Positions 8,050-46,207 of a stretch of DNA of 64,000 nucleotides are shown here, in pieces. The translations under genes were made by a program, and so were the position numbers. How positions within the stretch are numbered: position 1 is the stretch's first letter; each line of letters starts with the position of its first letter. The notes beneath the pieces are model-generated. The model had not been told where the DNA came from. It ran no database searches and saw only the letters and a list, made by a program, of their open reading frames with translations. Source of the stretch: Chiloscyllium plagiosum (taxonomy: Eukaryota); the NCBI RefSeq assembly GCF_004010195.1, contig NC_057718.1, positions 40,254,101 to 40,318,100 on the forward strand, read 5' to 3'.

Positions 8050-8979
8050 CTTCTTTCTTCCTCTGTCACCTATTTTAAAAATCTACATTGCTTAGATATT
8101 TATATGATACCTATGCTGCAGTTTGGAAATGAGACACCGTATTGTAAGCATTTTGTAAATCCATAGACACTCTTTGTCCAAATAGTTCAGTTCTTCAACA
8201 AACAGTTAAACTTTTCAAACAAGGCTTCTCTGGTAACAGATCTAAGTTGGATGTCAATGACTAACATAGTCATTGTGCATTAATCTGATAAGCAAATTAT
8301 GGATTCTAAAAGCAATAAACTGCTTATAAATGTTGTCTTGTGTTCATCTGGGTAGTTTTCAAGAACAAAAATATCACTGGATTAAAAATGTTAACTCTTT
8401 CTTTGGCCACAGATTCTACCAGACGTGCTGAGTTTCTCCAACAATTTATGTTTATGTTTCAGTTAATAGTGATTGATAGTTAACTACCATGCATTGTTTA
8501 AACTTTAAACCAGGCAGGTTGGCTCTGGTTGATTGCTCTGACAAATGAACCAGAGGATGGCTGTCACCCACTCTTTCGGTTTGAAATAAGCACAGCATAT
8601 GCATATTTCTTTTCCCTCTAAACAACAAGGCTCTGTGCATTAATGAATAATTGCAGTCTGTGAATTTCATGACTCATGTGATGCTAGCTATGTAGGCCAT
8701 ACATTCCAAAGACTGGAGGATGGTACCAAACAGCTTATCTCTTTGGCAAGGTACTGACCGTGACAGTCTGCTTGCTTTTGCAAAATTTACAGTATATTTG
8801 ATGTGATTGGGCAACATTTGCAAAATATTTCTCCGTTTAAAGAATTAGGCTGACAACCAGTTTAGGATTGTTGGTCAGACTCAGTGTCGCAATTGTGTTT
8901 ACTGGAAACTGCATGTATTAATAGCTACATATATTAATACATATATTAATATAGCTACATATATTAATGCATCAATCTG

Positions 8980-10935: not shown

Positions 10936-11416
10936 CCACCTTCTCTAGAGGTGTGTCACAGCATTCCCATACAGGTTTATTGGTACAATGAACTAACCTA
11001 TCTACTTACAGTCTTCTTAACTACAGGTGGAAATCTCATAAATGACCATGATGGTTGTTATAATGCATAACTAAATTATGTGACAAACATTTTATGTTTT
11101 ATCAAAACTGAGCCTCTGTTCTAATGAAGATCTTGTGTGGACACCCTTCTCTACTTGGGAACTCATTGACTTCCCAACCGATAAGGAAGATTTGTTGCTG
11201 TTGCTGTATGCTTTAAAAAAAGTGGAAAAAAAAGGATTTGTGGCAATGAAAGCTAGACGTCTCAGGTGGTTCTGGTGGTCACCACTACAACATATAACAT
11301 GCGGAGAACAAGATGAAGCTCATCAACACGAAGAGAATAATCAATTAATATTAACCCCTTTACACCACGACACAACACCCTCTCTGATTCTGATGTGAAG
11401 TGTTTGACTGGTATAT

Positions 11417-11481
11417 ACAAAGGTAAAAATCAACCAACACCAGGTTGTAGTCCAACAGGTTTATTTGGAAGCAGTAGCTTT
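11417..11481 (-). mobile_element. Penelope-like family B terminal fragment
   Basis: acaaaggtaaaaatcaaccaacaccaggttgtagtccaacaggtttatttggaagcagtagcttt matches 30519-30586. Confidence 0.7.
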
Positions 11482-15845: not shown

Positions 15846-17150
15846 TCAGAGTCATGGAAACAGAACCTTCGGTCCAACTGGTCCATTCTGAACATAATCC
15901 CAAACTAAACTGGTCCCATCTGCCATATGCCTCCAAACACTTTCTATTCATGAATTTTCCAAATGTCTTTTAAATGTTGTAATTGTACCCATATTATCAC
16001 TTCCTCAGGAAGTTTATTCCACACACGAACCACCCTGTGTGTAGAAATAATTTAGCCTCCAGTCCTTTTTTTTTTAAAATCTCTATCCTCTCACCTTAAA
16101 AATGTGGCCCCTAGTCTTGAAGTCGTCCATCCTAGGGAAAAGCTGAAAAATGTGTTGCTGAAAAAGTGCAGCAGGTCAGGATTCTTGAAGAAGGGCTTAT
16201 GCCATAAAACGTTGATTCTCCTGCTCCTTGGATGCTGTCTGACCTGCTGTGCTTTTCCAGTAACACATTTTTCAGCTCTGATCTCCAGCATCTGCAGTCC
16301 TCACTTTCTCCATCCTAGGGAAAAGACAACTACCATTAACTCTATCTATATCTCATTATTTTATAAACCTCTATCAATTCACCTCTCAACCTTCTATGCT
16401 CTGGTGAAAAAAGACCCAGCCTTTCTTTATAACTCAAACCTTCCATTCCCAGCAATACCCTAGTAATTCTCTTCTGATCCCTCTCCAGCTTAATAGTATC
16501 CTTCCTGTAACTGGTTGACCAGAACTGGACACAGTATTCCAGAAGAGGCCTCACCAATGTCCTGTACAACCTCAGCATGACTTGCCAACTCCTATACTCA
16601 AAGGACTGAGCAATGAAAGCAAGCGTGTCAAATGTCTTTTTAACCATCCTGTCTATGTGTGATGCAAACTTCAAAGAATTGTGTATCTGAACCCCTATGT
16701 CCCTGTGTTCTACAGCACTACCCGAGGCCCTACCATTAATTGTATAAGCCCTACCCTTGTTTTTTGGACCAAAATGCAATATCTTGCTTTTATCCAGATT
16801 GAATTCCATGTGCTATATTTCAGTCCATTGACCCATTTGAATAAGATGTCTTTGTAATTTTAGAAAACTTTCTTCACTGTCTACTCTGCCACCAATTTTG
16901 GTGTCGACGCAAACTTACTAACCATACATTCCACATTCTCATTCAAATCACTTGTGTAAATGATGAACAAAAGAGGACTCTGAACCAATCTCTGTGGAAC
17001 ACCACTGGTGACAGGCCTCCAATCTGAAAAGCAACCTCCACTACCACACTGTCTCCTGAAGGTAAGCTGATTCTGTATCCAACTGGCAAGCTCACCCTGA
17101 ATCCCATGTGACCTAACTTTATTTACTGGTCTACCATGTGATAACTTGAT
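15846..17150 (-). mobile_element. 5'-truncated CR1 LINE (RT C-terminus and 3' UTR) with a nested Penelope mini-element
   Basis: ORFs 16342-16809 (LYRTLVRPLLEYCVQFW, RRLRGELIEVYKIM) and 16881-17177 (VTSGVPQ). Confidence 0.92.
16143..16311 (+). mobile_element. Penelope-like family A palindromic mini-element with a degenerate hammerhead; TSD up to 17 bp
   Basis: tccatcctagggaaaag at 16126-16142 and 16309-16325; inverted arms 16141-16180 / 16238-16277; ends ...tctgcagtcctcactttctcc. Confidence 0.85.
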
Positions 17151-23894: not shown

Positions 23895-24025
23895 ATTACA
23901 GATGTTGGAAATCTGAAGCAAAGACAGTTCTGAAGAAGAGTCACTAGACCCAAAATGCTAACTCTGCTTTCTGTCCACAGATGCTACCAGACCTGCTGAG
24001 TTCTCCAGTTTCTGTTTTTGTGTCT
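23895..24025 (+). mobile_element. Penelope-like family D terminal mini-element with a decayed hammerhead motif (23927-23962)
   Basis: gttCTGAAGAagagtcactagacccaaaatgctaac followed by tccacagatgctaccagacctgctgag; related fragments at ~2610-2728, ~8360-8450 and 39410-39460/39697-39768. Confidence 0.55.
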
Positions 24026-24597: not shown

Positions 24598-26077
24598 TGG
24601 TGTAGCCATGGGCACCCGCATGGGCCCCAGCTATGCCTGCCTCTTCGTAGGATATGTGGAACAGTCCATCTTCCGCAACTACACTGGCCCCACCCCCCAC
24701 CTTTTCCTCCGCTACATCGATGACTGTATCGGCGCCGCCTCGTGCTCCCACGAGGAGGTTGAACAGTTCATCCACTTCGCCAACACCTTCCACCTCGACC
24801 TCAAATTCACCTGGACAGTCTCAGATTCCTCCCTCCCCTTCCTCGACCTTTCTATTTCTATCTCAGGCGACCAAATCAACACTGACATCTACTACAAACC
24901 GACCGACTCCCACAGCTACCTGGACTACATCTCCTCCCACCCTGCCCCCTGTAAAAACGCTATCCCATTCTCCCAATTCCTTCGACTCCGCCGCATCTGC
25001 TCCCAGGAGGACCAGTTCCAAAAACGTACAACCCAGATGGCCTCCTTCTTCAAGGTCCGCAATTTCCCCCACGACGTGGTCGACGATGCCCTCCACCGCA
25101 TCTCTTCCACTTCCCGCTCCTCCGCCCTTGAGCCCTGCCTCTCCAACCGCTACCAGGACAGAACCCCACTGGTCCTCACCTACCACCCCACCAATCTCCA
25201 TGTACAGCGCATCATCCGCCGTCATTTCCGCCACCTCCAAACGGACCCACCACCAATGATATATTTCCCTCCCCTCCCCTATCAGCATTCCGTAAAGACC
25301 ACTCCCTCCGGGACTTCCTCGTCAGATCCACACCCCCCACCAACCCAACCTCCACTCCCCGCACCTTCCCCTGCAACCGCAGGAGGTGCAAGACTTCCGC
25401 CCACACCTCCCCTCTCCCCTCCCTCCAAGGCCCCAAAGGAAACTCCCATATCCGCCACAGATTCACCTGCACCTCCACACAATCATCTATTGCATCCTCT
25501 GCACCCGATGTGGCCTCCTCTATATTGGGGAGACAGACCGCCTACTTGCGGAGCGTTTCAGAGAACACCTCTAGGACACCCGGACCAACCAACCCAACCA
25601 CCCTGTAGCTCAACATTTCAATTCCCCCTCCCACTCCACCAAGGATATGCAGGTCTTTGGACTCCTCCATCGTCAGACCACAACAAAACGACGGTTGGAG
25701 GAAGAACACCTCATCTTCCGGCTAGGAACCTTCCAACCACAAGGGATGAACTCGGATTTCACAAGTTTCCTCATTTCCCCTCCCCCCAGCCTGTCTCAGT
25801 CAAATCCATCAAATTCAGCACCGCCTTCCTAACCTGAGATCTTCTTCCCGACCTCTCCGCCCCCACCCCAGTCTGACCTATCACCCTCACCTTGACCTCT
25901 TTCCACCTATCACATTTCCGACGCTCCTCCCCCAAGTCCCTCCTCCCTACCTTTTATCTTAGCCTGCTGGACAAACTTTCCTCATTCCTGAAGAAGGGCT
26001 TATGCCCGAAATGTCGATTCTCCTGTTCCCTGGATGCTGCCTGACCTGCTGCGCTTTTCCAGCAACACATTTTCAGC
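24598..26077 (+). mobile_element. 5'-truncated Penelope-like element (family A): RT, GIY-YIG endonuclease and hammerhead-containing terminus; frameshifted
   Basis: GVAMGTRMGPSYACLFVG...LRYIDDC...LPFLD; IIYCILCTRCGLLYIGETDRLLAERFREHL; frameshift near 25250 and stop at 25572-25574. Confidence 0.95.
25984..26019 (+). ncRNA. Minimal type-I hammerhead ribozyme motif (family A; stem-III C changed to T)
   Basis: ATTC-CTGAAGA-A-GGGC ttat GCCC-GAAA-T-GTC-GATT. Confidence 0.6.
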
Positions 26078-28457: not shown

Positions 28458-28542
28458 GTGTATTACTAACTGTGGAACATGTAAAAAACTCTGTCAATGT
28501 GTTGGTTGAAGAGGGTAAAGAGAATGTGCTGCAGATTTCTGA
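28458..28542 (+). CDS. EPRS1: EPRS1 exon 2 (GVLLTVEHVKNSVNVLVEEGKENVLQISE)
   Basis: tgtag|GT...GA|gtaagt; 85 nt; similar to human [28 protein letters not shown]. Confidence 0.95.
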
Positions 28543-29379
28543 GTAAGTATTCTCCGTTGCTTCTGTTGCTCTTATTTTAACTGAGAGAGCCTGGCTCTTT
28601 AAACATGGGTTAGTCATCACTTCAGAGTGATAGTCAATATTTAATTCTTCTGGAAATTATGGATTACTGCCTACAAAATTTCAACATTTGAAACATTGGT
28701 AACCACAGACTCTGATATGCTTAACTCTTCTATACCCTGTGAAATAGCCTGGGAACCCTCTATTTTCAACAATGCAACTCCCTGCTATCTTCATGAGGGC
28801 CATTAGGAATGGGTAATAAAACTGACCTTGCTGGCCACAGCCACATTCCTAACAAAAATCAGTTGACAGCCTTAAATCATCATGCTGTGTACGTTCTTGC
28901 TGTCTTTGCCTTCGTGCTTACCAAAGCTCGTACAAAAGACTGCTCAAAATCTGTGTCCATGTCTGTGCTTGGGCCATAGTTCCAATTTTGTTTTACTACT
29001 CCCTGCTTCTGCGATGCATCTTGAGATGTTTTATGCAAAATGTGTTCCACAGATGTGAGCTGTTCTAAATGCTGATGATTGCATCTTTGAGGGACTAATC
29101 ATTACGATGATTATCATTTATCATTTATCATTTTTTGGAATCTAGAATTACTGACTTGGTAATATTATCATCCAGGACTTTAATGAGCCAATTGACAACC
29201 AAAAGCTTTATGGTCACTTTGTTTTTCTTTTTATTGATAGAAGCTTTTTAGTTCCAAACTTTTTAACTGGAAATAGAATTCTCAAATCACTGTTGTGGAG
29301 TTGAAATTTGTGCTTCCTGATTTGTTATTCCAGGAACATAACCAGTACATTAGTTCACCTTTTTAATTTTACTGTGAAG

Positions 29380-29960: not shown

Positions 29961-30017
29961 AGATGCATGAGAGGCAGTGGAGGAGCATCGAACAACGCTA
30001 GGTACACATATAGGTAA

Positions 30018-30510
30018 GTTGAAACTTTATTGCTGGAACAGCACAGCAGGTCAGGCAGCATCCAGGGAACAGGAGATTCGACGTTTCGGGCACAGGCCCT
30101 TCTTCAGGAATGAGCAGAGAGTGTTCAGCAGGAGAAGATAAAAGGTAGGGAGGAGGGACTTGGAGGAGGGGCGTGGGAAATGTGATAGGTGGAAAGAGGT
30201 CAAGGTGAGGGTGATAGGTCGGAGTAGGATGGAGGCGGAGAGGACAAGAAGAAGACTGCAGGACAGGAAGGCGGTGCCGGGCGGGAGGGACCCGGCTGAG
30301 ACAAGGTGGGGGGAGGGGGGATGAAGAAACTGGTGAAGTCCAAGTTCATCCCCTGTGGTTGGAGGGCTCCCAGTCGGAAGATAAGACGCTCCTCCTCCGA
30401 CCGTCGCGTTGTTGTGGTTTGGCGGTGGATGAGTCCAATGACCTGCATATCCTCGGTGGAGTGGGAGGGGGAGTTGAAATGCTGTGCCACAGGTTGGTGG
30501 GGTTGGTTCG
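30018..30510 (-). mobile_element. Penelope-like family A 3' fragment (end of GIY-YIG plus terminus), young
   Basis: Minus ORF PVAQHFNSPSHSTEDMQVIGL...EERLIFRLGALQPQGMN; terminus nearly identical to the left arm at 39460-39551. Confidence 0.92.
30076..30111 (-). ncRNA. Intact minimal type-I hammerhead ribozyme motif (family A)
   Basis: Minus strand ATTC-CTGAAGA-A-GGGC ctgt GCCC-GAAAC-GTC-GAAT: stem I ATTC/GAAT, loopless palindromic stem III (ACGT), GUC cleavage triplet. Confidence 0.75.
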
Positions 30511-30511
30511 A

Positions 30512-30950
30512 TGGGGTGTACAAAGTTAAAAATCACACAACACCAGGTGATAGTCCAACAGGTTTCATTGGAAGCACTCGAGCTTTCGCAGCATCGCTCC
30601 TTCATCAGGTGATAGTGGAGGGCTCAATCCTAACACAGAATTTATAGGACAAATTTGCAGTGTGATGTAACTGAAATTATATATTGAAAATTTGATTGTT
30701 AGCCTTTCATATGTTAGAATACCATGATAGTTTAATTTCTTTCATATGAAAATCACAAAACCTTTTTTTTTAAAGTTGCATTCTCAGGTTAACTGCTAAC
30801 AAGAGCTCGACAATATGGTGACGGTGTTGCCTCCCTGTGTTCTCTCTCTATGCCATGATGTTTAGATTGATTCTCATCTAAAAGTGAGATAACGGAGTTT
30901 TACATGACTTCATGCAGTTTTTGAGCTCACAGTGCTACAGGAATGCATGC
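30512..30950 (-). mobile_element. Penelope-like family B 3' fragment with hammerhead motif at 30575-30611
   Basis: Minus strand CAC-CTGATGA-A-GGAGC gat GCTGC-GAAAGCTC-GAGTG; terminus shared with 1253-1335. Confidence 0.7.
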
Positions 30951-31069: not shown

Positions 31070-31217
31070 CGGAAAAGGTGGGGGGGTGCGGCCAGTGTTT
31101 TTGCGGAAGATGGATTGTTCCACATACCCTACGAAGAGGCAGGCATAGCTGGGGCCCATGCGGGTGCCCATGGCTACTCCTTTTGTTTGGAGAAAGTGGG
31201 AGGATTGGAAAGAAAAG
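31070..31217 (-). mobile_element. Isolated Penelope family A RT fragment
   Basis: Reverse complement encodes SSHFLQTKGVAMGTRMGPSYACLFVGYVEQSIFR, near-identical to 24601-24680. Confidence 0.9.
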
Positions 31218-31762
31218 TGCCATGCCTCTAGGAATTCCCTGGCTGTTCTCTCTTTGGCTTGTCCTATAATAGTAGTGTTGTCCCAGTCGAATTCATATTG
31301 CTTGTCATCTGCATGTGTGGCTACTAAGGATAGCTGGTCGTGTCATTTTGTGGCTAGTTGGTGTTCATTGATGCGGATCGTTAGCTGTCTTCCTGTTTGT
31401 CCTATGTAGTGTTTTGTGCAGTCCTTGCATGGGATTTTGTACACTACATTGGTTTTGCTCATGCTGGGTAACAGAACAGCCAGGGATTTCCTAGCGGCAT
31501 GGCACTCATCCACAGATTCAATCAATAAGCACATTGACCTGGACCCAATATACCGACCACTGCAACGGACAGCTGGAACTGACAACCAGAAGCGGCAGAT
31601 TCAAATGGCGGAGGAAAGATCACAGAAGCGCTTCACAGGAGGCTCCCAAGCACTGAGGATGTCACCTAGACAGGGGACAAAACGTCTGCAACACAAATTC
31701 CCAGCTCGGCGAACAGAACCACAACAATGAGCACCTGAGCTACAAATCTTCTCTCAAACTTT
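31218..31762 (+). mobile_element. Penelope-like family C fragment with 5' inversion (31218-31470 minus, 31471-31762 plus) and hammerhead motif at 31650-31689
   Basis: Minus part TNVVYKIPCKDCTKHYIGQTGRQLTIRINEHQ (GIY-YIG); plus part GCA-CTGAGGA-T-GTC...GAC-AAAAC-GTC-TGC. Confidence 0.85.
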
Positions 31763-32476: not shown

Positions 32477-32576
32477 AGACATTGTATTTAATGATGTGAA
32501 TTCCATCGTTCGCTACCTGGCTCGGGTAGATACAGAAAATAAGCTCTATGGATGTAATCTACTAGAACAAACTGAG
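32477..32576 (+). CDS. EPRS1: EPRS1 exon 3 ([33 protein letters not shown])
   Basis: ttacag|A...GAG|gtaaga; 100 nt; GST-like domain NSIxRYLAR motif. Confidence 0.96.
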
Positions 32577-35500
32577 GTAAGAGTTTGAGCATCTGTAGGA
32601 CAACATATTAGTCTTAGCAATGGACAGGTATAATCATCACGAGCAGTATTTTTAATGGAAATATCTGCCTTTAAGAATAAGATATCTGATAGCTACATGA
32701 GTCTTGAATTTCAGCAGGTCATGGTTGCTGGCTAATTGTTGCTTGTATTTTCATAAGAGAATTCAATCAATGTTTAATTGGGTGTGTTGTTTTAACTGTC
32801 CTGTCTCAGGTAGAAGTAAATGACTTCTCTTGTCTTTTAGCACTTTGATTTGGTTTGTAGATGACAAAATAATTGAGATAGTTAACAGTACCACAATGTC
32901 TAGTTTCCATTGCCAACCGTATTGTCGAAGTGACCATTTAAATTTGTCTGCATTATTAGTTTTTTTGTATGTCTGATTCTGTGGATTCTAATATTTTTAT
33001 TCTAATAAATTCTATAGAAAATATTTAGTGTTTTTTTTTCTTGATCAAAACATATGACTAAACTTTCACTCAACAATCTTAACTAATCGTTGCTGATGGA
33101 AGACCATTTTGACCCTTACCTAACAGGCTAGACACTGACCACCCACCAGCAGCAGTAATGGGACAGAAGTAAAAGCCCAAGTCCCACAAATCTATATGTA
33201 AGATCAGAGTAAATTCACTAATTTTAAATTAATTAATTCTATGGAACTGTGGAAAGCCAATTAAAATCATGTCATTTCCCTAGAAGTTGAAGGGAAAATA
33301 AAAGACTAATAATCTTGATTTAAACTCTTAGTTGAAAATAGAGCTAGCAATTAACCATCTGACTGGTACTTCTGGCTGGTATGAATCACTTATGAATACA
33401 TGCCTTTATTTCTGTGGAAACTCTGTGACCAATTAGATTTGATAATTTTTTATTTCTCGCCCACGGCAGCCTTATCCTGACTGTTCTGTGGCTGTCGATT
33501 TGCTTCGATGATCACCAGGTTTTTGCTTTACATGGTATCTTCCCACTCAACAAATACTCCCAGTGAGCCTGACTATTGGAGTTTATATTTTATCATTACT
33601 CTTTCTATCGATACAATGTTGACATGCTAATCATGATCCTCAGGCTATATCTGTTTCCTTTCTCACTCTTTACATTTTCCCATACCACTCCCCTGACATC
33701 ACATCACCATGTTATGATACCACACCATGTTATGCTGTTGTCAGTTTCTCTTGCTGCAAGTTTCTTTCCCCTTGAAAGTTTGAGTCAAGAATCTGTAATG
33801 AAAAAGATTCACCTGATTTCTTTTTCTCTGGAACACTCTCCCTGGATCAGAGAGGAACATGAGCCAACTCCCTTCCCAGCAGCTCTAATTCTTTGACTTA
33901 GATATTTTCTAAAGTTTTGGAAGTTGTTGTTAGAGCTCACTTTCTTTTAAGTACTCTTTTAATGCATAATCACTCGTATGCTTTTAGGCATGCAGGTGGC
34001 TCTGATCTTATTACTTATGTTGTCCACTTCCAGAACTCTGAACAGTGAATTACTGACATTTCCTTGTCAACACCTCTCTTTGCTCATTCCTGATCTTTTA
34101 GTTTCACTTGCTTTTGGAATATGAGTGTCACTGACAAAGCAAGCACATATTGCTTATCATTGACTTTGGTTATGTGACTGAGCTGCCTTTCTTAAACAGC
34201 TGCCATCCTTGTGATTCAGGTGCTGTCACAGTTCTGAGAGAGAGATGCAGAATTTTGACCTAAAAATGTCTGATATTCAATATTGTATTAGTTAAAATTT
34301 TTCCTTGAGAATATTAGGAAGCCTGAAGCTATTGTTCCTGGTTACTCATTCCTATTCACTGATGCTATGTATCCCCCAGACTCTGTGGTGAGCTGAGCAA
34401 GACTGTTAGAATCTGGCCCTGAACTGAAGTTCTAACTCCTTATCCTCTCTAACATCAAAGCTGACTACTTGCACCTTCATAACGTTGCCCATTTCTATCC
34501 ATGTCTTGGCAGCTTTGCTTAAACTCATTTCTGTGCCTTTTGTTCTTACTATTTCTGACTTCCAAAGTATTCCTATGTAACACAATATAATTCCTTCAAG
34601 TTATCTCGGACTGAGTGTGATAAATTGATGAGTTAATATAAGGAAATTGACATGGGAAGTGGAAATAATTTTACTGTACTGAACTACTGAAAATGCATCC
34701 ATGTCAAGATGTGAATTTTAAATATTTGACATCGGTGAAAGCTAAAAAGTGTAAATCATATGCAAATATTTTTAAACAACGTCTGCAAGAATCTAAGCAC
34801 CCAACATTTGATCTGATTACTGCATAATTGTTAATTTTTTTCTATTTTGTTAACTTAATTTTTGTCTGTTTAAAGAAATCCAGAAGCATCAATATTTGTA
34901 AATCCATTGAACCCCTTCTGTAAACACAGCAACCCATTTCTATAGTTTTTGAGATTCCAATAGGCTAAGGCTGTCAATCTATATGATTTAATTGGAGATA
35001 TCAGCAGTGTGAATTCAATATGAAGTATAATTTCAATTTGAACCAATTGATGATTAAAATTAAAAAAAACACACTATATTTTGTGAGCTTCATTCTGATC
35101 TTATTCTTAGAAATTGCACATGTTCTTACGTTTTTGAAGATTAGTTTCTTCAAATATAAGCTTTAATCAAGACCTAAAGGTCTATAGTGTTAAAAACCTT
35201 GGTATTTAAACAATAGTGAATTCTGTAGATTTAAATTCATGCATTCGAACATTGTCTTGGCTCTCAGAATGCTTGAAGTGGTGGTGAGGATTTTTACGGT
35301 ATTTGTTTTATTGCATGTAATTTACATCTGTCACCCACTAAATGACTTTTATTGTTTGGAACTATTGTGAATCTAAAGAATTGAGGACATGTACATTGAA
35401 TTTGGGCCCTGCTGCCACGTCAGCTTGTCTTTTTGTAAAATTCTGTAACTCTACACCATTTGGGACAGATGGAAGTAATTTTTGTGCCACTGTTTTTTTT

Positions 35501-36869: not shown

Positions 36870-37026
36870 GTGGACCATTGGTTGGAGTTCAGCAAAACAA
36901 GGTTGGCAAGTTCTGCTGTGTTCCCTGCAGCAATACAAGAGCTGAATTATGCACTTTCTCTCAGGACATTCCTGGTTGGACATGAATTGACACTGGCTGA
37001 TCTCTGTGTATGGGCAGCATTGAAAG
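36870..37026 (+). CDS. EPRS1: EPRS1 exon 4 (VDHWLEFS...[22 protein letters not shown])
   Basis: ggcag|GTG...AAAG|gttggc; 157 nt; GST-C-like motif. Confidence 0.96.
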
Positions 37027-38716: not shown

Positions 38717-39035
38717 GGGGGTGGCATGGTGTCTCAGTGGTTAGCACTGCTGTCTCACAGCACCAGGGTCCCAGGATTGATTCCAGCCTTTGGCAACTGT
38801 CTTTATGGAGTTTGCATGTTCTCCCCGTGTCTGCATGGGTTTTCTCCGGGTGCTCCGGTTTCCTCCCAAAATCCAAAGATTGTGCAGGTCTGGTGAATTG
38901 GCCATGCTAAATTGTCCATAATGTTAGGTGTACTCGGCAGAGGGAAATGGGTCTGGGTGGGTTACTCTTCGGAGGGTCGGTGTGGACTGGTTGGGCTGAA
39001 GGGCCTGTTTCCACACTATAGGGAATCTAACCTAA
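38717..39035 (+). mobile_element. Near full-length HE1-like V-SINE
   Basis: tRNA-like head, core ccccgtgtctgcatgggttttctccgggtgctccggtttcctccc, CR1-like tail gggctgaagggcctgtttcc. Confidence 0.9.
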
Positions 39036-39516
39036 ACTATTCTGAATCAACTTGGCAATGACATCACCTTTAGGATCCCAATCTGCATTAGATTTTGTGT
39101 TTTTGGTGTCTGAATCCTCCTTTCTCAAACATCTTTGCTGATGTAATATTCTGGGATTTCATGTCTTTGCTGCTTTTTGACAGTAAATCACTGGAAACTG
39201 ATCATTTTTACATTGAGGTCACTTGGTACTCTGAGCAATCTTATACCCAGACCTCCTGAATGACAGGTTGGGACAATACCACAAGCACCTTTGCTGAGAG
39301 GTCCTGTGTTGCAACAGAGGGCCAAGCCCCACCTGCTCCAGAGGTCTGAAGTATCTACAAGCCCTCTGTTCAGGAAAGCACTGACACCAACTAGCTAAAA
39401 GCGAAGTAGTGTGGGTACTGGAGACCTGAAACAAAAACAGAAGGTGCTGAATAAACTCAGTTGAAACTTTATTGCTGGAACAGCACCGCAGGTCAGGCAG
39501 CATCCAGGGAACAGGA

Positions 39517-39554
39517 GATTCGACGTTTCGGGCACAGGCCCTTCTTCAGGAATC
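39517..39554 (-). ncRNA. Minimal type-I hammerhead motif, left arm
   Basis: Minus strand GATTC-CTGAAGA-A-GGGC ctgt GCCC-GAAAC-GTC-GAATC. Confidence 0.72.
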
Positions 39555-39586
39555 CTGAAGAAGGGCCTGTGCCCGAAACGTCGAAT
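39551..39586 (+). ncRNA. Minimal type-I hammerhead motif, right arm (EPRS1 sense strand; predicted cut after 39582)
   Basis: AATC-CTGAAGA-A-GGGC ctgt GCCC-GAAAC-GTC-GAAT; stem I weakened by one mismatch. Confidence 0.65.
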
Positions 39587-39794
39587 CTCCTGTTCCCTGG
39601 ATGCTGCCTGACCTGCTGTGCTGTTCCAGCAATAAAGTTTCAACTTTGATCTCCAGCATCTGCAGACCTCACTTTCTCCTCGCTGAATAAACTCAGCAGG
39701 TCTGGCAGTAACTGTGAGGAAAGAAACTGTTAACCTTTTGAGTCCAATTTGTCTCTGCTTCCAAACTGACCGCTATCTATTGCTCTGATACCTT

Positions 39795-40454
39795 TGTAAA
39801 ACTGCATGTTGATTTGGTCTACTTCACCAAAAATGCAATGCCTAAATCTATGCTTAAATAAACCTGATGATTTGAGGGCCCATTCCAATATATGCATTCT
39901 AAGTTTAGACCGGATTAATTTTGAACAAAAAACTGATTAAGTAATGGTTAGTTCTTGAAGGCAAAAGGATAAGGTGTGTAACATTCCAGCTAATTCCAGT
40001 CTGGCATCCTAGCACATGCACGTGAGCATGCACACCCACGAACCCACCCCATTGGGGTCTTGTAACAGCGCATTCAGGTGATGACGAGACAAATTTGACC
40101 AGAAATCTTTTTATGGAATTGCTTTTTCAGCTTCTCTGTCACCTTTTGGAATCCTAAAAGGAATTCTTCAGAAATGTGGCAAAGGACTTCATAGGCTCCA
40201 CCCTAAACCCAGTTTTAAACAGAAACAAATTTGTCACAGCTTCTGATGACCATGAAATCAGACATGTGATTTCCAAAAAAAATCCAAGTAGTTAAGTAAG
40301 GTATGTGACTTTCCAGAAGAAGCTTTGAGAAAGTGTCCCACCTTCTAATAATCGTGACCAGTTAAGTTCAAACACATCAGAACTCCAAATGAACCAGTTT
40401 TCACAATCCCTTGGACCTGAATTGTCAAAAATAACAATAAGTATCTTCATAACA
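39795..40454. mobile_element. Possible solo LTR; a related partial copy lies at ~45540-45974
   Basis: cctt|tgtaaaac...tcttcataaca|ccta (TSD with one mismatch); shares aatggttagttctt and ttttcacaatcc...tatcttcataaca with 45784-45974. Confidence 0.5.
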
Positions 40455-46067: not shown

Positions 46068-46207
46068 AAAGTAGCCTTTGTCAGCAGCAACTAGGTCAGA
46101 ATAAGCTATCCACTCATGTTAAACGCTGGTACAACTTCCTTGGTGCTCAGAATGCATTTCAGTCTGTGTGTACAAAATGGGCAACAGTAACTCCACAGAA
46201 TACAATG
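46068..46207 (+). CDS. EPRS1: EPRS1 exon 5 ([47 protein letters not shown])
   Basis: aacag|AA...ATG|gtaagt; 140 nt; HVKRW motif. Confidence 0.94.

Follow-up and report, generated by a model that had tools for sequence, protein, structure and literature searches.

Penelope-like elements (PLEs) typically insert as a head-to-head inverted pLTR with a palindrome at the junction, a one-sided tail of 30–40 bp and a target-site duplication (TSD) (PMC3846280, PMC8557442). Their minimal hammerhead ribozymes were reported in 2014 to occur in pairs on opposite strands, about 100–700 bp apart, and to show no activity as monomers and weak activity as dimers (PMC4209133). For PAc, a Poseidon element of the green anole, the PLE protein is described as making nicks in both strands of the target and extending them, without a need for hammerhead cleavage; reverse transcription has two internal starting points, and it is these that delimit the tail (PMC11167929). 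In addition, non-LTR retrozymes have been reported in one chondrichthyan (bioRxiv 10.64898/2026.07.22.740005).

Here, we analyzed an insert in an intron of EPRS1 within a 64-kb window, that is, the whole stretch of 64,000 nucleotides of Chiloscyllium plagiosum DNA under study. Like the insertion units of endonuclease-positive (EN+) PLEs, as far as these are described in the sources above, the insert shows a head-to-head inversion, a 36-nt one-sided tail, a TSD and a hammerhead in the repeated end; unlike them, it carries neither an ORF nor a direct pLTR between the arms and measures 221 bp in total. The inverted head-to-head arrangement itself is already described for PLEs, and what is absent from the EPRS1 insert is the body. 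Its TSD is 15 bp long, compared to 8–10 bp in the rotifer examples given in those sources. With the minimal metazoan PLE hammerheads of PMC4209133, in the accessible part of which sharks are not named, the insert shares the type I core, the extra base before stem II, G10.1–C11.1, a stem I of 4–5 bp and a self-complementary, loopless stem III. In contrast to the spacing reported there, the two cores of the insert are 5 nt apart and have stem I sequence in common. The shark family resembles PAc Poseidon in having its tail delimited by two putative reverse transcriptase (RT) start sites and in retaining an uncleaved hammerhead, whereas it differs in an apparent Neptune/Nematis-type linker Zn-finger and in nick sites that are not at ATT. 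Non-LTR retrozymes are likewise non-coding, PLE-derived and equipped with a type-I hammerhead, but they are described as head-to-tail tandems in which one strand carries two or more hammerheads. Assignment to this class was rejected since the insert has an inverted, head-to-head layout with one hammerhead per strand. A MITE was also considered and rejected: the arms come from a retroelement end, an unpaired tail stands at one end only, and the direct repeats in the window are 15 and 17 bp long.

The insert is bounded by a 15-bp direct repeat without mismatch (39446–39460 and 39682–39696) and is 221 bp long between the two copies, as an earlier note on this DNA had claimed; the last 2 nt of the left copy also match the family end. 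The left arm (39459–39551, sense on the minus strand) and the right arm (39553–39645, sense on the plus strand) are both copies of a PLE end module. They meet at a centre (39551–39553) which, in alignment with the parent copies, falls on the 5′ strand of stem I of the hammerhead. The description in the earlier note, 91-bp arms with a 3-nt centre, is equivalent to 93-nt arms separated by a single unpaired base (39552), the outer 2 bp being common to the TSD. The one mismatch between the arms (39487 C versus 39617 T) is a private substitution of the left arm. The right arm is followed on the plus strand by the unpaired 36-nt tail (39646–39681). The start of both arms is the hammerhead's front edge rather than its cut site, and the core is uncleaved. 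At the outer ends, the left arm stops at the tail-less 3′ end of the family (putative RT start site 1), with 2 nt of microhomology at the junction, and the right arm with its tail stops at the second 3′ end (putative RT start site 2); the TSD encloses the unit. The note's statement that the insert has no coding capacity holds in the functional sense, but an ATG-led frame of 27 codons (39601–39681, plus strand) runs through the tail. This frame is possibly the start of the PLE ORF; it matched none of the N-termini of 120 homologous proteins. An RT–EN ORF of its own is absent from the 221 bp, and the insert is a truncated product and not an autonomous copy.

Two 5′-truncated PLEs are present in the window. 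One of them, of the same subfamily (30016–30519, minus strand), consists of the C-terminal part of the endonuclease followed by the end module without a tail. Its terminal 94 nt (30016–30109) are 100% identical to 39553–39646, and it ends within 1 nt of the point at which the left arm stops. The other, a frameshifted copy of a sister subfamily (24599–26077, plus strand), contains RT, linker, GIY-YIG and end module, again without a tail, and ends at the same point; its GIY-YIG domain (PF01541) was matched with an E-value of 0.00038, which is below the domain cut-off. Protein comparison showed that the upstream ORF pieces match shark PLE proteins. The parent proteins are elasmobranch PLEs with 57–80% identity, the best relatives of the sister copy being a bamboo-shark protein (80%) and proteins of whale shark, zebra shark and rays. 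The CX2-5CxxC linker Zn-finger between RT and EN, by which PMC8557442 defines the Neptune and Nematis clades, was found by pattern in 92 of 120 homologues, including the shark proteins P0003 and P0004; in the decayed window copy the last Cys is absent. The end module thus derives from an element with RT and, C-terminally, a GIY-YIG endonuclease, and an inverted head-to-head copy, a one-sided tail and a TSD are all found with it; the arm is identified by these comparisons as the 3′ end of an EN+ shark PLE. A rearranged remnant at 31070–31460 combines a short PLE RT fragment with a GIY-YIG-like piece in the opposite arrangement.

Contigs from three DNA runs (X1, X2 and X5) and raw reads from one RNA run (X21) were aligned to 39553–39912, which covers right arm, tail and flank. 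The numbers of aligned contigs (12,274, 14,442 and 11,099 per DNA run) indicate that the end module is highly repeated. Summed contig depth over the arm was 10^4–10^6 times that over the flank, a ratio that is not a copy number and says only ‘highly repeated’. Among the 24 of 314 loose ends listed, ends with mixed flanks were seen behind 39644–39646 in all three DNA runs and behind 39679–39682 in all four runs. These ends place two fixed 3′ termini of the family some 36 nt from each other, in agreement with the two RT start sites published for the anole element. Variants at 39585, 39623 and 39666, at about 40–50% of contig depth, point to at least two abundant end-module subfamilies.

When a strict minimal-hammerhead descriptor was run on the 64-kb window and on 30 shuffles of it, four sites were found in the window (39555–39582 and 25988–26015 on the plus strand, 39549–39522 and 30107–30080 on the minus strand) and none in any shuffle. 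Rfam, which does not model the minimal form, returned no hammerhead match and one chance-level miRNA match (E 0.64). The insert does contain the expected hammerhead on each strand, with catalytic core, stems I and II and palindromic stem III all present. On the minus strand (39516–39555, core 39549–39522), the type-I motif has a fully paired stem I of 5 bp plus G-U. On the plus strand, which is that of the pre-mRNA, the core (39555–39582) has a 4-bp stem II, a self-complementary, loopless stem III (ACGU) and an A.A mismatch in stem I; a fully paired stem I occurs only on the minus strand. The cut after GUC had been placed correctly, as the predicted plus-strand cut follows 39582.

The full insert is predicted to fold with –190.4 kcal/mol (z –30), and none of 200 shuffles was equally stable, in line with the hairpin foreseen for EPRS1 pre-mRNA, which the note regarded as a possible ADAR or Dicer substrate. 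For stem II, the predicted pairing probability is 0.93–1.0 when an arm stands alone but about 4e-19 within the complete insert. On either strand the complementary arm is transcribed first, and the ribozyme is therefore predicted to be masked, as the note had also anticipated. Its further suggestion, that a ribozyme is presented whichever strand is transcribed, is correct for the sequence only, since each transcript would carry one minimal hammerhead, and that one masked. Given this masking, the A.A mismatch in stem I and the inactivity or weakness of minimal motifs, cutting of EPRS1 pre-mRNA by the insert is predicted to be unlikely.

The RNA run was sampled at about 2 in 100, and 459 of 12,955,460 records aligned, on both strands, with no read on the unique flank. 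Read starts or ends did not pile up anywhere in this sample, including at 39582, in a library ill-suited to show cleavage. A>G changes at 39643 and 39658 were also present in DNA contigs, a third, seen at 39649 in 5 of 108 reads, affects a tail position that the duplex does not include, and C>T and G>A changes were in similar excess. For these reasons we claim no editing; most of the A>G changes across the family are DNA variants. A splice acceptor at stem I, as described for Drosophila Penelope in PMC4209133, was sought in the two parent copies, and neither has an AG there.

The location in EPRS1 was correctly recognized. The insert lies between exons 4 and 5 of this plus-strand gene, the upstream exon at 36870–37026 (human residues about 78–130) and the downstream exon at 46068–46207; two further exons are at 28459–28543 and 32478–32577. 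The identity of the gene is given by a PDB match to human EPRS residues 77–134 (E 2.7e-19) and by PF00749. The intron is presumably number 4, a count we take from the human exon order because exon 1 was not located in the window. In addition to what was first described, the insert is nested in a PLE end module that is older, decayed and from a related family (39418–39768, minus strand), which it splits; both sides of this host element show 71–86% matches to copies at 2622–2724, 8378–8462 and 23925–24024. The TSD lies in the stretch of this host end with similarity to the incoming arm (78% over 27 nt). A preference for pLTR-like targets is possible, though a single case allows nothing firm. At the level of the locus the insert is probably neutral.

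For each DNA run (three samples from two studies), one long contig is listed whose alignment starts precisely with the first base of the right TSD copy (39682), and not in the tail. These contigs extend by 438, 439 and 440 further letters (X1, X2 and X5) upstream of 39682. Counted from the left TSD copy, this distance leads to 39006–39008, just inside a SINE (38733–39033), which is a place where a contig would break. From these lengths we infer that all three samples apparently cross the site without the insert and with a single TSD copy. The filled junction is in none of the 24 pieces listed of 38,923. Since the insert differs from its family by one substitution and the site is apparently empty in these samples, these observations are most simply read as an insertion that is recent, not fixed and probably polymorphic in the species. 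The apparently empty allele in other animals is a new result. Beside the site, an ordinary SNP (39756 T>C in the X1 and X2 contigs, not in X5) will be useful for allele phasing.

Other arrangements of the end module were also seen. A sibling insert with inverted arms and tail (16126–16325, plus strand) is bounded by a 17-bp direct repeat. Within it (16139–16311) the right arm is full and tailed, the left arm is only about 42 nt long, and both junctions show 2–3 nt of microhomology. This copy could be an unequal product of two primers or a deleted palindrome; its short left arm is joined via a 5-nt overlap. In one X5 contig the palindrome has its centre at the ACGT of stem III, and four X2 contigs are joined near 39560, with a weak consensus agreement of 0.67. 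This set of variant junctions is small, namely one window copy, one contig and four contigs. Copies with the same centre as the EPRS1 insert overran the edge of the alignment reference, which starts at 39553 (464, 479, 356 and 116 records), and hence fall outside the counts. Joints from the arm to 39682–39689 have sides of <30 letters and may represent related repeats. A joint in X1 from 39644 to 39553, with 2 letters between, is listed without its type; it may be a head-to-tail dimer of the 94-nt arm, a retrozyme-like tandem. The window also holds an older palindrome of 396 bp (1253–1648, 77% arm identity) from a different, sister PLE family with a hammerhead, its centre about 100 nt upstream of that hammerhead. 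Further ends of this family are at 11400–11481 and 30519–30690, of which the latter borders directly on the 5′ end of that PLE which occupies 30016–30519. At 23895–24024, a host-type PLE end follows what appears, when read by eye, to be an antisense piece of its own tail, an asymmetric inversion. Beyond the shark data, a scan with the hammerhead pattern gave no match in metagenome and viral contigs, and a 19-mer scan gave no viral locus and 48 metagenome loci, which we regard as chance matches because none extended beyond 28 nt.

We consider it likely that the insert records a single recent event by an EN+ shark PLE in which the end module alone was laid down twice, head to head. This agrees with one of the two options offered in the earlier note, a severely truncated, inverted Penelope insertion, for which the identical parent end in the window and the published layout both speak. 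The palindrome would have been built during insertion, with both nicks in the target probably serving for priming. Two primers would be provided by nicks staggered by 15 nt: the top-strand nick would prime a cDNA from RT start site 1, using the 2-nt microhomology, and the bottom-strand nick would prime another from RT start site 2. Both cDNAs would extend to the front edge of the hammerhead and be joined there where 1–3 nt are complementary; repair would then resolve the central mismatch. The cited biochemistry comes from a Poseidon-clade element, whereas the present family appears to have the Neptune/Nematis-type linker. The product would be a dead end, with no ORF, its ribozyme masked by the earlier-transcribed arm and hammerhead cleavage unused.

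More speculatively, the stop point could be the capped 5′ end of the PLE mRNA, in which case the arms would be 94-nt and 130-nt run-off cDNAs from 5′-proximal RT sites. An initiator-like YYANWYY motif is found at the stop point in both parent copies; it would occur by chance at 1.3–1.8% of positions, and it overlaps stem I. An extra G can be a trace of a cap. In Drosophila Penelope, the start lies 46 bp upstream of an intron whose end falls at helix I. We propose this run-off detail tentatively, and would not yet give it an even chance.

The second option of the earlier note was a self-propagating, non-autonomous palindromic unit, in which the PLE protein acts in trans on a transcript of an existing palindrome and copies it. 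If priming took place at sites 1 and 2 from both nicks, arms, tail and centre would all be reproduced. This option would account for the two arms starting at the same point, and for AT or GAT preceding 39553 in 3 of the 12 joints listed, the right arm of the copy at 16126–16325 starting likewise. A dominant common centre is also compatible with the same-centre copies that overran the reference; the centre lengthens stem I on the minus strand (5 bp plus G-U, compared to 4 bp in the parent), and non-autonomous PLE derivatives are known (PMC8557442, bioRxiv 10.64898/2026.07.22.740005). However, the template would be a hairpin of –190 kcal/mol whose base contains site 1, the unit has no evident promoter or boundary of its own, the arms are identical to an ordinary PLE end without any unit-specific change, and each strand has one masked, monomeric hammerhead. 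Other junction types also occur; this option is not supported, and assembly of the palindrome at insertion is favored over a unit that copies itself. We think such a unit unlikely, and we are just as doubtful of its stronger form, a still-active palindromic shark retroelement whose fixed centre perfects stem I on one strand and which seeds polymorphic intronic dsRNA hairpins.

A PLE origin with inversion by self-priming, i.e. a fold-back, possibly on an antisense template, and with an endonuclease trimming one end to leave the tail, has precedents in two studies: self-priming on an antisense template was proposed for junction palindromes by Arkhipova et al. (PMC3846280), and formation of the tail by endonuclease resolution of an intermediate by Craig et al. 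(PMC8557442). The contig centred on a natural 4-nt palindrome would also fit. Against it, simple fold-back of one cDNA cannot supply the tail, because the plus strand follows the parent antisense through the centre and yet ends in the tail, an argument which assumes that the upstream letters of the template were those of the two parent copies. Asymmetric junctions such as that of the copy at 16126–16325 are also more simply explained by two unequal cDNAs, and we regard self-priming as rather improbable. An assembly artefact, with the insert or its inverted arm misplaced into the site, might be suspected from the three apparently insert-free samples, from the filled junction missing among the listed pieces, from the fact that no listed sequencing run contains >0.89 of the sequence words, and from the gaps in the assembly. 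The perfect TSD together with both ends lying at family-specific termini makes such an artefact very unlikely indeed; moreover, one arm has a private mismatch and the host element is contiguous across the site. Two-primer insertion by an EN+ PLE remains our preferred reading.

No report of this shark PLE family or of a two-primer PLE model was found in a literature search that covered the main texts of largely open-access papers. The value of the EPRS1 insert is that of a clean, very young footprint of PLE integration. With junctions at the two putative RT start sites and arms that stop at the front edge of the hammerhead, it lends itself to testing a two-primer, run-off model. Should the empty allele be confirmed, the PLE family would be one that is still active, or was so until very recently, in this lineage of sharks, and alleles with and without the insert would provide a natural control for the effects of a 90-bp intronic hairpin on editing and splicing.
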